From Candidatus Jordarchaeales archaeon (GTDB taxonomy: Archaea; Asgardarchaeota; Jordiarchaeia; Jordiarchaeales; Freyrarchaeaceae), in contig JAWAHN010000001.1 of assembly GCA_038889235.1 (NCBI GenBank), positions 644,499 to 676,498 on the forward strand: DNA of 32,000 bases, given 5' to 3'. Both the position numbers and the translations under genes were made by a program. Of the stretch, positions 4,036 to 21,980 are shown in pieces. How positions within the stretch are numbered: the stretch's first letter is position 1; each line of letters opens with the position of its first letter. The notes below the pieces were generated by a model. The model was given only the letters and a program-made list of their open reading frames with translations. It was not told the origin of the DNA and did not search any database.

Positions 4036-4182
4036 GCGGGGGTTGCCTAGTGGCTAGCTTAAAAGCCCGCAAAAGGCGCTGGCCTGGAGCCCGATGACTG
4101 AAAGCCAGTGACCCGAAAACTCGCGTGGCTAACACGCGTAGCCGGAGGGGTCGCGTGGGTTCGAATCCCACCCCCCGCGCCA
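4036..4182 (+). tRNA. tRNA-Ser(GGA) with three introns
   Basis: Acceptor GCGGGGG/CCCCCGC, G73, encoded CCA; anticodon stem CTGGC/GCCAG. Introns at 4056-4072 (D-loop), 4090-4102 (37/38) and 4119-4147 (variable arm). Spliced length 88 nt with variable arm GACCC-GAAA-GGGTC. Confidence 0.88.
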
Positions 4183-17714: not shown

Positions 17715-17829
17715 TGGAGCCCCGGGCGGGTTTTTCTACAGCGACTCGAACCCGCGGCCTGCGGCTTACGAGGCCGCCGCTCTACCGGTTGCCCGCCAAT
17801 TTCAAAAAGACGCTCTGAGCTACCGGGGC
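17715..17829 (-). tRNA. tRNA-Thr(CGT) with two introns
   Basis: Acceptor GCCCCGG/CCGGGGC, U73, CCA; GCGGC-CT-CGT-AA-GCCGC. Introns at 17789-17814 (15/16) and 17732-17744 (59/60). Spliced length 76 nt. Confidence 0.92.
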
Positions 17830-18069: not shown

Positions 18070-19431
18070 ATGGTTTTGGATGCTTTGGGTGAGGGGCTGA
18101 GGAACGCCATTAGTAAGCTTCTTCGTTCGACTGTTGCGGATAGGGAGGCTGTTAGAGAGCTTGTAAGGGAAATGCAGCGTGTTTTACTTTCCTCCGACGT
18201 CAATGTTGAGCTTGTGCTCCGCCTCTCAGAAAATATTGAGAGGAGGGCGCTCGAGGAGGAGCTACCCTTAGGTATTAGTAGAAGAGAACATATTGTTAAG
18301 ATCGTTTACGATGAGTTGGTGAAGATTTTAGGTGGTAGACCGCGTGGTTTGAATATTAAGCCTGGACGATTAAATGTTATAATGCTGGTTGGGATACAGG
18401 GTTCCGGGAAAACAACCACGGCAGCTAAGCTAGCGAAGTATTTAGTTAAACGGGGATTCAAGGTTGGGCTCGTTTGTGCAGACACATTCCGCTTAGGGGC
18501 CTATGAGCAACTCAGCCAGCTGGCTGAGTCTATTGGTGTACCTTTCTTTGGGGACGTTAATAGCAAGAGCAGCGTTGATGTCGCCAGAAGGGGGATTGAG
18601 TTCTTCCGGGAAAAGGGGGTTGACGTAGTAATAGTTGATACCGCTGGAAGGCATAAGAACGAAGCAGACCTTATGGAGGAAATGAAGGAAATCGCTAATG
18701 CCATTAAGCCTACTGAAATAATACTTGTTGTTGATGGAACTTTAGGTCAGCAAGCGATGGTTCAAGCTAAGGCGTTTAAAGAAGCCACAGATATAGGCTC
18801 AATAATTGTAACGAAACTTGATGGCACTGCTAGGGGTGGAGGGGCGCTTTCAGCGGTAGCTGCAACGGGTGCGCCTATAAAATTTATAGGGATAGGAGAA
18901 AAACTGGACGACATAGAAGCCTTTGACCCTGTTGGCTTTGTAGGGCGGCTTCTGGGAATAAGCGATTTGCGTGCGCTCCTTGAAAAAGTAAGAGAAGCGG
19001 AAATTAAGCCCGAAAAAGAGGAAGTAGTGGCTTTACTCACAGGTCGCTTCACATTGAAGGACTTCTTCAGGTGGATGGAGCAGGCTAGGAAAATGGGACC
19101 TGTGGGGAGGATCTTTGAGCTAATGGGCTTATCTGGCATACCAAAAGAGCTTAGAGAGGTCGCTGAGACAAAACTTGAAAGGTGGAAAGTTATAATGCAG
19201 TCTATGACAAAAGAAGAACTGGAGAACCCTAAGATACTTAACAGGTCGAGGGTGAACAGAATTGCAAGAGGGTCTGGGACTACGCCTAAAGAGGTCAAGG
19301 AACTAATAGACCAATATTTTGCGGCGAAAAAAATGGTTAAGGTACTAGGCAAGAGGAGAATGCGTGGAAAGGGATTGCCACTTCACGGCTTTTCCTTAGA
19401 CCAAATGGGGAAGCTAGTGGGAAAAACATGA
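18070..19431 (+). CDS. srp54: Signal recognition particle protein SRP54
   Basis: GIQGSGKTTT, DTAGRH, TKLDG.ARGGGALS; M domain with SRVNRIARGSG. Confidence 0.97.
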   Translation: MVLDALGEGLRNAISKLLRSTVADREAVRELVREMQRVLLSSDVNVELVLRLSENIERRALEEELPLGISRREHIVKIVYDELVKILGGRPRGLNIKPGRLNVIMLVGIQGSGKTTTAAKLAKYLVKRGFKVGLVCADTFRLGAYEQLSQLAESIGVPFFGDVNSKSSVDVARRGIEFFREKGVDVVIVDTAGRHKNEADLMEEMKEIANAIKPTEIILVVDGTLGQQAMVQAKAFKEATDIGSIIVTKLDGTARGGGALSAVAATGAPIKFIGIGEKLDDIEAFDPVGFVGRLLGISDLRALLEKVREAEIKPEKEEVVALLTGRFTLKDFFRWMEQARKMGPVGRIFELMGLSGIPKELREVAETKLERWKVIMQSMTKEELENPKILNRSRVNRIARGSGTTPKEVKELIDQYFAAKKMVKVLGKRRMRGKGLPLHGFSLDQMGKLVGKT

Positions 19432-19994
19432 GACATTTCTATATAGTATTGAATGCTATCCCTGTGATTTCAAAAAGGGAAGTCGATCACGGGCAGTTGA
19501 GCGACGAAGTGGCTGAACTTTGTTCCTGTATTAGAGCGGCGCTTTTCCTCTCTCACGACATAAGACGTGATGTTAGAGTCCACCTCATACTACTCGGAGA
19601 GAGAAAAGACGTGGTAATTTCCGGTGAAAGTGTCAGGTACCTCTCTCCTGACGAGAGGTCGCTTTGCATGCTTTTAATTAAGTTCAGTGAGAGGAAAACT
19701 AGGAAACCTTGGAGAGGCGTTTGCGTAAAAGAATTCGCTTCCCTCCGAGAGATATTCCCCTCAGACGGTGTGCTAATAGTTCCTAATGATGAAAGAGACG
19801 AACTTCAGCAAGTAGAAAATTTGAAAGAGGTCATGTTAATTGTTCCATTGAATCCATTAGGAAAGTTAGAAAGAGAGTTGGATAATGTAAAAAAGCTGCA
19901 TGTTAAAGTTTGCGGTAAACTTGACCCAAGTAGTCTTATAACTGTTATAAACAACCGAATCGATATAACGGAGGAGCAACAATGTTCCCTCTAA
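19428..19994 (+). CDS. trmY: TrmY-like (tRNA pseudouridine-54 N1-methyltransferase, SPOUT) homologue, degenerate
   Basis: ALFLSHDIRRDV and SPDERS motifs, C-terminal ITVINNRID; sits between srp54 and pus10 with overlapping start/stop codons. Confidence 0.7.
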   Translation: MRHFYIVLNAIPVISKREVDHGQLSDEVAELCSCIRAALFLSHDIRRDVRVHLILLGERKDVVISGESVRYLSPDERSLCMLLIKFSERKTRKPWRGVCVKEFASLREIFPSDGVLIVPNDERDELQQVENLKEVMLIVPLNPLGKLERELDNVKKLHVKVCGKLDPSSLITVINNRIDITEEQQCSL

Positions 19995-21352
19995 ATAAAG
20001 CCCTTGAAATGCTCGAAAGAACCCCGCTTTGCAACAGCTGCTTAGGTAGACAGTTCGCCCTTTTAGGAATGGGGTCAAACAACCCGAACAGAGGGTATGC
20101 ACTTAAAATGGTTCTAACCATGGCCGCAGCACATATGCTCAGAGATAAACCAGAAGAGGGGACGAGAATACTCAGGATACTTGCAACGAACGGCATGTTT
20201 CAGCCAGCTGTTGAGACCCTAGAGAAAGAGGGTATGAAAGTTGAGAAAGATGAGAAAAAATGCTACATCTGCGGTGGACTTATGATGAAGAAAAAAGAGA
20301 TAGCAGAGAAAGTCGTAGAAGTGCTGAAAAACTACGATTACAGAAACTTCCTCATCGGATGCCACGTCCCCTCGTCACTGACAGAAAAAGATGATGAGCT
20401 TAAGGCGACACACCAAATAGACACCGGCGAAACGATAAAGGCGGAATTTAATAGAGAAGTTGGAAAGATAGTTTCAGCAATGACGGGAAAACCTGTTGAT
20501 TTCAAGAACCCCGATGTGGTCGCCATAGTAAACCTCGAAAGTCTAGACGTCACAGTAAATTCTAACCCACTGTACATAGGAGGACGTTACCTAAAACACG
20601 TCAGAGGCATACCGCAAACCAAGTGGCCCTGCAGAGTCTGCAAGGGTAAAGGATGCCCGAGATGCGGGGGAACCGGGAAGATGTACAGCGAGTCTGTTGA
20701 AGAGTTAATCCTCCCACCTATACTTGAGGAAACAAGAGGGGACGAGGGGAAATTCCATGGAGCAGGAAGGGAAGATATAGATGCAAGAATGCTTGGAACA
20801 GGTAGACCGTTCATAGTTGAAATTAAGAACCCGAAGAGGCGCAACATAGACTTAAAGCTCCTAGAAGAGAAGATAAACGCTTATGCCCAAGGGAAAGTGG
20901 AAGTGCATTCCCTGCAATTTGCAGTAAAGGAAAACGTGCGACAACTTAAAGCATTATCACAATTTGCCCCTAAGACTTACAGGGCGCTTGTTAAACTAGA
21001 CAGAGAAGTAACACCACAGGAGCTAGAAGAATTAGAGAAGCGACTTGCAGGACAAACAATAAGGCAAAAGACACCTAGGAGGGTCGCTCATAGAAGAGCA
21101 ATAAAGACCAGGCTCAAAAAAGTTTACCAAGTTCAGGCTAAACAAATAGACCCACAAACCATAGAGTTAACAGTAACATGCCAGGGAGGATTGTACGTAA
21201 AAGAACTTGTGACCGGCGACAAAAGAAGAACCAGGCCAAGCGTGGCAGAAATCCTCCAAACGAAAGCAGAGTGCGTGGAATTAGACGTTATAGACGTTGG
21301 TACCGCGATTCCACAAGAAACAGTACAGCAAAACGAGAAAAAAGCCACGTAG
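19982..21352 (+). CDS. pus10: tRNA pseudouridine(54/55) synthase Pus10
   Basis: LCNSCLGRQF, GGRYLKHVRGIPQTKW, FHGAGREDIDARMLGTGRPF, GGLYVKELVTGD..RT.PS. Confidence 0.95.
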   Translation: MFPLNKALEMLERTPLCNSCLGRQFALLGMGSNNPNRGYALKMVLTMAAAHMLRDKPEEGTRILRILATNGMFQPAVETLEKEGMKVEKDEKKCYICGGLMMKKKEIAEKVVEVLKNYDYRNFLIGCHVPSSLTEKDDELKATHQIDTGETIKAEFNREVGKIVSAMTGKPVDFKNPDVVAIVNLESLDVTVNSNPLYIGGRYLKHVRGIPQTKWPCRVCKGKGCPRCGGTGKMYSESVEELILPPILEETRGDEGKFHGAGREDIDARMLGTGRPFIVEIKNPKRRNIDLKLLEEKINAYAQGKVEVHSLQFAVKENVRQLKALSQFAPKTYRALVKLDREVTPQELEELEKRLAGQTIRQKTPRRVAHRRAIKTRLKKVYQVQAKQIDPQTIELTVTCQGGLYVKELVTGDKRRTRPSVAEILQTKAECVELDVIDVGTAIPQETVQQNEKKAT

Positions 21353-21403: not shown

Positions 21404-21514
21404 GGGCCCGTAGCTCAGCTAGGTAGAGCGGCAGAAAATGAACGCCGAAGCTCATAACCTGTTGGTCCAGGGTTCGAATGTGATAAAACGCCGAAAATCC
21501 CTGCGGGCCCACCA
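21404..21514 (+). tRNA. tRNA-Ile2(CAT) with two introns (elongator Met is the less likely alternative)
   Basis: GGGCCCG/CGGGCCC, A73, CCA; the G31-C39 pair and GGGCCC acceptor fit archaeal Ile2. Introns at 21435-21449 (30/31) and 21479-21497 (59/60), both clean BHBs. Spliced length 77 nt. Confidence 0.85.
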
Positions 21515-21543
21515 CCATTCAAAATGTTAAAGCAAGCAATCCT

Positions 21544-21556
21544 AAAAGCTTTTAAA
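21544..21556 (+). promoter_or_regulatory. BRE/TATA promoter of tRNA-Glu
   Basis: AAAAGC-TTTTAAA about 29-41 nt upstream of the mature 5' end. Confidence 0.55.
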
Positions 21557-21584
21557 TCCGTTTTCTATTCTATTTCGTGCTAGT

Positions 21585-21715
21585 GCCTCGGTGGTGTAGC
21601 CCGGCCAAATTTAATGATGCTGAAAGCATAAGGGGCTTAGGAGTAAATCCGCCCAATCGACCCCTTGACCCGGGTGGTTAAGAGCCAGGGAATTCAAATC
21701 CCGGCCGAGGCACCA
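21585..21715 (+). tRNA. tRNA-Glu(TTC) with three introns, one splitting the anticodon
   Basis: GCCTCGG/CCGAGGC, A73, CCA; Glu-type D arm (GTGT/GCAT) and 4-nt variable loop. Introns at 21608-21624 (20b/21), 21639-21656 (34/35) and 21675-21692 (53/54). Spliced length 78 nt. Confidence 0.88.
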
Positions 21716-21842
21716 ATCACTTCTAATTTTTGACAAAGCTAAAGTTATTACAAGAAACTAAACGAGATTCCCTCTTTGTTAGGAGCCGCGAGAAAAAGTC
21801 CAAAATGTTCTGGAAATGGGCTTTAGGGAAAATATGATGTAA

Positions 21843-21980
21843 TGGCGCCGGGGGCAGGATTTCCGTGGGAGGACCCCATCTCGAACTTCCGCCCTTTTTA
21901 GGGGCTGCGACCACCGGGTTAACAGCCCGGCGCTTTAGGCTACTTTAAGCGGTGATCTACCTGGTCTGAGCTACCCCGGC
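21843..21980 (-). tRNA. tRNA-Asn(GTT) with three introns
   Basis: GCCGGGG/CCCCGGC, G73, CCA; CCGGG-CT-GTT-AA-CCCGG. Introns at 21935-21956 (22/23), 21887-21904 (52/53) and 21860-21879 (59/60). Spliced length 78 nt. Confidence 0.92.

Follow-up and report, generated by a model that had tools for sequence, protein, structure and literature searches.

The pre-tRNA-Glu(UUC) of Methanopyrus kandleri carries a relaxed HBh' intron at position 20b/21 together with an anticodon-loop intron, and is cleaved in vitro (PMC5829648). That of Pyrobaculum calidifontis carries three bulge-helix-bulge (BHB) introns (PMC4390854, PMC4090602). Multi-intron tRNA genes have also been published from Jordarchaeia/Freyarchaeia and Atabeyarchaeia (Valentin-Alvarado 2024, PMC11291895; Goswami 2026, bioRxiv 10.64898/2026.10.13.758758). 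Here, we analyzed a 32,000-nt stretch of a Jordarchaeia (Asgard) genome (hereafter the window), in which positions 21585-21715 are, as judged from sequence, the tRNA-Glu(UUC) gene. We propose, with a probability of roughly 95%, that its precursor contains three local BHB introns that would be cut by EndA and joined by RtcB, the middle one lying at position 34/35, within the anticodon. The parts of the gene and its flanks are the following:

21585-21715, forward strand: tRNA-Glu(UUC) gene made up of four exons and three introns, its CCA being encoded (ARAGORN on the spliced 78-mer; intron-free Glu(TTC) genes of genomes G047 and G318)
21585-21607, forward strand: exon 1, tRNA positions 1-20b
21608-21624, forward strand: intron 1, 17 nt, in the D-loop at 20b/21, an HBh' motif with 4/4 central and 3 inner pairs
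21625-21638, forward strand: exon 2, positions 21-34, ending with the wobble base U34
21639-21656, forward strand: intron 2, 18 nt, at 34/35 inside the anticodon, the sole register with 4/4 central pairs
21633-21657, forward strand: BHB (HBh') motif of intron 2, from sequence reading and predicted folding
21657-21674, forward strand: exon 3, positions 35-53, beginning with U35-C36
21675-21692, forward strand: intron 3, 18 nt, in the T-arm at 53/54, a relaxed motif with 3/4 central, 4 inner and 4 outer pairs
21693-21715, forward strand: exon 4, positions 54-76
21544-21557, forward strand: likely BRE and TATA box by the archaeal promoter consensus, an A-run followed by TTTTAAAT, about 30 nt 5' of the gene
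21727-21731, forward strand: T-run, a likely terminator from reading of the sequence

A sigma-70 promoter scan was set aside as not applicable to archaea. On the unspliced window, neither ARAGORN nor Rfam returned anything, and a relaxed ARAGORN run gave noise only. Removal of all three introns leaves 78 nt, which ARAGORN calls as tRNA-Glu(ttc) and which form a canonical cloverleaf in agreement with intron-free orthologues: the spliced 78-mer is identical at 71/78 positions to the intron-free Glu gene of G047/G318 (Asgard), and the exact 34/35 junction is present in intron-free Asgard Glu genes (identity 71/78 and 73/78). The spliced sequence is of Glu type, with U11:A24, U13:G22, A46, no base 47, a short variable loop and a YUC anticodon; we take these features to be identity elements for GluRS recognition.

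The middle intron displays the elements of a BHB site, with a 4-bp exon-intron central helix (GGGC 21633-21636 with GCCC 21651-21654), two 3-nt bulges (TT|A 21637-21639 and AA|T 21655-21657), each to be cut after its second base, and an inner hairpin at 21640-21650 (GGA 21640-21642/TCC 21648-21650). The initial annotation had placed these elements at the same positions and had called the BHB clean; the central helix and the bulges stand, and the outer helix was overstated, since the exon side offers a single pair, G28:C36. A strict hBHBh' motif would need an outer exon-exon helix of at least 2 pairs, and the motif is thus a relaxed HBh'. When the 18-nt cut is slid from 28/29 to 41/42, five possible loops keep an intact stem along the anticodon arm, and 4/4 central pairs with an inner helix are obtained at 34/35 only; among 2000 shuffled versions of this intron, 4/4 central pairs plus a 3-bp inner helix never occurred. 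For intron 1, a one-base shift of the cut leaves 0-1 pairs only. In RNAfold predictions of the precursor, the 34/35 motif is present in both the MFE and the centroid structures, with a pair probability that falls from ~0.9 at 37 °C to ~0.5 at 70 °C. At the higher temperature, the predicted populations of the BHB and of the mature anticodon stem are about equal, which counts against our proposal, as do the single-pair outer helix and the failure of the RNA data described below to show a spliced read. A group I tRNA intron was rejected, the insert being 18 nt long with no Rfam match.

The genome (2.14 Mb, 95% complete) encodes at least one intron in each of the 41 tRNA genes parsed, seven of which (Asp, Arg(CCT), Tyr, Gly(TCC), Lys(TTT), Trp and the Ser gene at 4036) were read by hand. 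Among these 41, only the two Glu genes have an anticodon-internal intron; 35/36 calls for Arg and Trp turned out on manual reading to be parser errors and were dropped. The second Glu gene, at C1:760886-761022, is a Glu(CUC) paralogue whose body is nearly the same and whose intron, a different one of 20 nt, occupies the same 34/35 site. The check for another tRNA-Glu(TTC) gene proposed by the initial annotation found none in the genome, and one may have been missed because the assembly is only 95% complete. No contiguous Glu anticodon arm was found in the genome either. Together, the register test, the intron-free orthologues, the CUC paralogue and this inventory bear out the original proposal of a 34/35 intron joining T34 to T35-C36.

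We then considered homologues. BLAST, used without the motif and with the intron end set by anticodon-stem closure, found 27 Glu genes with an insert, and 4/4 central pairs form at 34/35 in 27/27 of them; their introns are 16-31 nt long and variable in inner sequence. The corresponding BHB score of the pattern-found loci (33/33) is partly circular, as three of the four helix bases are built into the pattern. At the base outside the search pattern, exon base 31 G faces an intron C or T, and C faces G; introns with a matching base-31 change may be non-homologous.

The pattern search detected the 34/35 Glu intron in 18 of 400 Asgard genomes belonging to four families, these distribution counts being lower bounds since the pattern misses genes whose stems differ or that hold additional introns between positions 23 and 53. 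The site is present in 5/5 and 6/6 genomes of two Jordarchaeales families, i.e. in every Jordarchaeales genome searched, in 4/4 genomes of a family with Baldrarchaeota-labelled records and, in the CUC gene only, in 3/3 genomes of a further Asgard family; it was detected in none of the other families searched. Within the Baldr family, the site in Glu(UUC) is filled by the intron in one genome and empty in another. When 185,579 species genomes were scanned, 31 matches proved to be true tRNAs, and four of these came from genomes carrying a Hadarchaeota or Thermococci label (L061, L063, L073 and L084) that are each other's nearest relatives. There, Glu(UUC) carries a 34/35 intron of the strict hBHBh' type with a four-pair outer helix, plus a D-loop insert. 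The unrelated intron sequences and the four-pair outer helix suggest that the site was gained more than once; an intron in both Glu genes was probably already present in the ancestor of Jordarchaeales. Four bacterial matches from the pattern scan and five further matches were rejected as chance hits outside tRNA genes, and short-pattern matches for Glu(CUC) in Hadarchaeota-labelled genomes were set aside, the pattern being too loose.

The anticodon arm admits other cuts. With 18 nt removed at 36/37-38/39, the 5-bp stem stays whole and the loop, CT-TAG-GA, looks normal. A canonical 37/38 intron, which is inserted a single base 3' of an undivided anticodon and pairs with C32-N35, would equip a Glu body with a UAG (Leu) anticodon, producing a mis-decoding or recoding tRNA. 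We judge this highly improbable: the 37/38 register has 2/4 central pairs in this gene by the same sliding test and 4/4 in 0/33 homologues, and the would-be anticodon varies freely across orthologues, which read at 37/38 give six anticodons (TAG, TAT, TTA, TTT, CAA and CAT) on near-identical Glu bodies and read at 34/35 give TTC or CTC in all. A true long-arm Leu(TAG) gene also lies elsewhere in the genome (C1 ~727460), as does a Val(TAC) gene (C2:298437), and a 37/38 intron would leave the genome without any GAA reader; GAA makes up ~3.6% of codons in long ORFs and calls for a UUC reader. The preference of the initial annotation for Glu(UUC) over Leu(TAG) thus agrees with the Glu-type body, the separate Leu(TAG) gene, the orthologues and the CUC paralogue.

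If the precursor were instead spliced in two ways, at 34/35 and in another register, it would yield Glu plus a second anticodon. The 33/34 register does give 3/4 central pairs in 22/33 homologues because the helix is G-rich, but in this gene the inner helix is absent there, the product would have the anticodon AUC, with A as its first base, and the alternative product is conserved in no orthologue; dual splicing therefore appears very unlikely. Lastly, the gene could be a remnant that has lost its function and never undergoes splicing, with which the RNA data might be reconciled: three raw hot-spring RNA runs gave 0, 0 and 1 reads on the region, with no spliced read among them. A public metatranscriptome contig of 291 nt, which matches 21515-21805 with no differences and thereby excludes an assembly error, is likewise unspliced, and may derive from DNA or precursor. 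Set against a remnant are the exons, identical across five genomes of the family in which the introns diverge from their second base onward yet keep the motif, the status of this gene as the sole Glu(TTC) gene found in the genome, and the presence of such introns in nearly all of its tRNA genes; we regard this reading as extremely unlikely.

For the 34/35 intron, we infer that the gene is transcribed into a precursor that would fold into three local BHB motifs, each to be cut by an (alpha-beta)2 EndA after the second bulge base, RtcB then ligating the exons. In the middle intron, G29-G30-G31-C32 would pair with the intron rather than with the anticodon stem, placing U33-U34 in the 5' bulge and U35 in the 3' one, and the cut would join U34 to U35-C36, so that the UUC anticodon and its stem would exist only after splicing. 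The partners of G29-G31 are intron bases in one fold and C39-C41 in the other, so that formation of the BHB and of the mature anticodon stem is mutually exclusive. In EndA chemistry, the 2'-OH of the second bulge base (here U34) is the nucleophile, and a 2'-O-methyl at 34 thus cannot precede cleavage. The genome encodes two EndA paralogues (PF01974), at C1 ~1056200-1056750 and C3 ~444300-444900, and one RtcB gene (PF01139). The catalytic EndA most resembles the alpha subunit of the Aeropyrum (alpha-beta)2 enzyme, and its K-P-K broad-specificity loop is retained; aligned to 3P1Z, the alpha subunit retains Y/H/K. The broad-specificity loop of EndA has been tied to relaxed-motif cleavage (PMC5829648, PMC12397907). 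Elp3 and two TIGR00269 thiolase-family genes are also present, and their products would probably act on the spliced loop only, U34 modification following splicing. Note that Elongator modification follows splicing in yeast for an ordinary 37/38 intron (PMC11408192), so this order would not be special to the 34/35 site.

Other tRNA genes of the genome show the following. In the window, tRNA-Met(CAU) (21404-21514, forward strand) has introns at 30/31 and 59/60, both with AACGCCGAA near the 3' end; Ser(GCT) at C2:433039 has the same element in its D-loop intron, which hints at intron copying. Directly 5' of the tRNA cluster lie a TrmY-like gene (below cut-off) and pus10 (19428-21352, forward strand), the enzymes for tRNA positions 54/55; the site of these enzymes is broken by the 53/54 intron in several tRNAs. 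tRNA-Asn(GUU) (21843-21980, reverse strand), with three introns (22/23, 52/53 and 59/60), is convergent with the Glu gene, an arrangement kept in three same-genus genomes, and tRNA-Thr(CGU) (17715-17829, reverse strand) has introns at 15/16 and near 59/60. A tRNA-Ser gene (4036-4182, forward strand) has an ambiguous 13-nt anticodon-loop intron, which gives GGA at 37/38 (2/4 central pairs) and TGA at 33/34 (3/4); GGA is favored because a Ser(TGA) gene exists elsewhere. Outside the window, Gly(CCC) (C1:1090422-1090535) and Gly(UCC) (C2:148251-148365) have C at position 33, a near-universal U in tRNA. Ala(GGC) (C1:695148-695286) has an intron at 33/34, just 5' of the anticodon, and in Asp(GUC) (C1:741358-741516), read manually, introns at 32/33 and 37/38 flank a 5-nt anticodon exon. 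By eye, the tRNA-Trp intron (C2:111364-111553) contains box C/D-like motifs and stretches complementary to its own anticodon arm, the same layout as the known guide that directs Cm34 and Um39. An intron-free Arg(CCG) gene (C6:391-468) duplicates the three-intron Arg(CCG) on C1; its small 5.7-kb contig may be contamination.

The position has consequences for published inventories. Supplementary Data 4 lists 38 tRNAs for Freyarchaeia-1, with no Glu among them (PMC11291895); this complete chromosome belongs to the same order as our genome. The 'Met CAT' entry in row 31 of that table (1545739-1545581, intron 1545685-1545670) corresponds, with exactly matching coordinates, to the Glu(CUC) gene read at 37/38, and the Glu(UUC) gene, near 1790195, is missing from the table. 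A complete published Asgard genome is left with no annotated tRNA-Glu and one false tRNA-Met. The warning in the initial annotation that scanners would mis-call such genes is upheld by this orthologue, although the predicted Leu call did not arise for the gene itself, which received no call. As the site occurs in every Jordarchaeales genome searched, the tRNA inventories and intron censuses of the group need correction. The 2026 census may share the Glu mis-call because isotype and anticodon were taken from tRNAscan-SE (Goswami, bioRxiv 10.64898/2026.10.13.758758). More generally, the gene indicates that an anticodon can be assembled from two exons by EndA-type splicing, which makes tRNA identity unreadable from contiguous DNA. 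The gene also offers a clean substrate for the order of Elp3 and NcsA action relative to splicing, and the filled and empty alleles inside one genus a site for studying intron gain.

Phrase searches of the literature, whose coverage does not extend to the primary position catalogues, returned no archaeal report of a 34/35 BHB intron, and the main texts of PMC11291895 and bioRxiv 10.64898/2026.10.13.758758 do not mention an anticodon-internal one. We see an even chance that the position is already catalogued somewhere, and put the same odds on the site being both unreported and recurrent. A farther-reaching reading, which we consider unlikely, is that 34/35 is uncatalogued and the first protein-spliced split of an anticodon, gained repeatedly and specifically in Glu because the 34/35 bond is a target, and that the intron is a repair scar or shield that gates wobble modification. 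Anticodon nucleases reportedly cut tRNA-Glu(UUC) at this bond, and viral integrases are said to use the Glu anticodon loop. The scar and integration-shield ideas come from the discussion in PMC4090602 and are hypotheses for the present gene.

Compared with known systems, the intron class and the intron load of the lineage are already published; position 34/35, for which we found no report, has caused a published mis-annotation. We take the group I intron of cyanobacterial and plastid tRNA-Leu(UAA) to sit between U34 and A35, hence a split anticodon as such has precedent. That intron, which interrupts the anticodon loop (PMC5931654), is a ribozyme several hundred bases long that splices itself, and it has no relation to the 18-nt EndA substrate described here. 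The tRNAs of Jordarchaeia/Freyarchaeia, the same lineage, and of Atabeyarchaeia share with this gene short non-canonical BHB introns, several per gene, and an (alpha-beta)2 EndA. In Thermoproteales, three BHB introns likewise occur in one tRNA-Glu(UUC) (P. calidifontis), and the intron positions given in the text of PMC4390854 and PMC4090602 include 20/21 and 53/54 and do not include 34/35. The M. kandleri gene resembles ours in encoding tRNA-Glu(UUC) and in having a relaxed HBh' intron at 20b/21 and a further intron in the anticodon loop; it differs in that this anticodon-loop intron lies at the canonical 37/38 and does not interrupt the anticodon.
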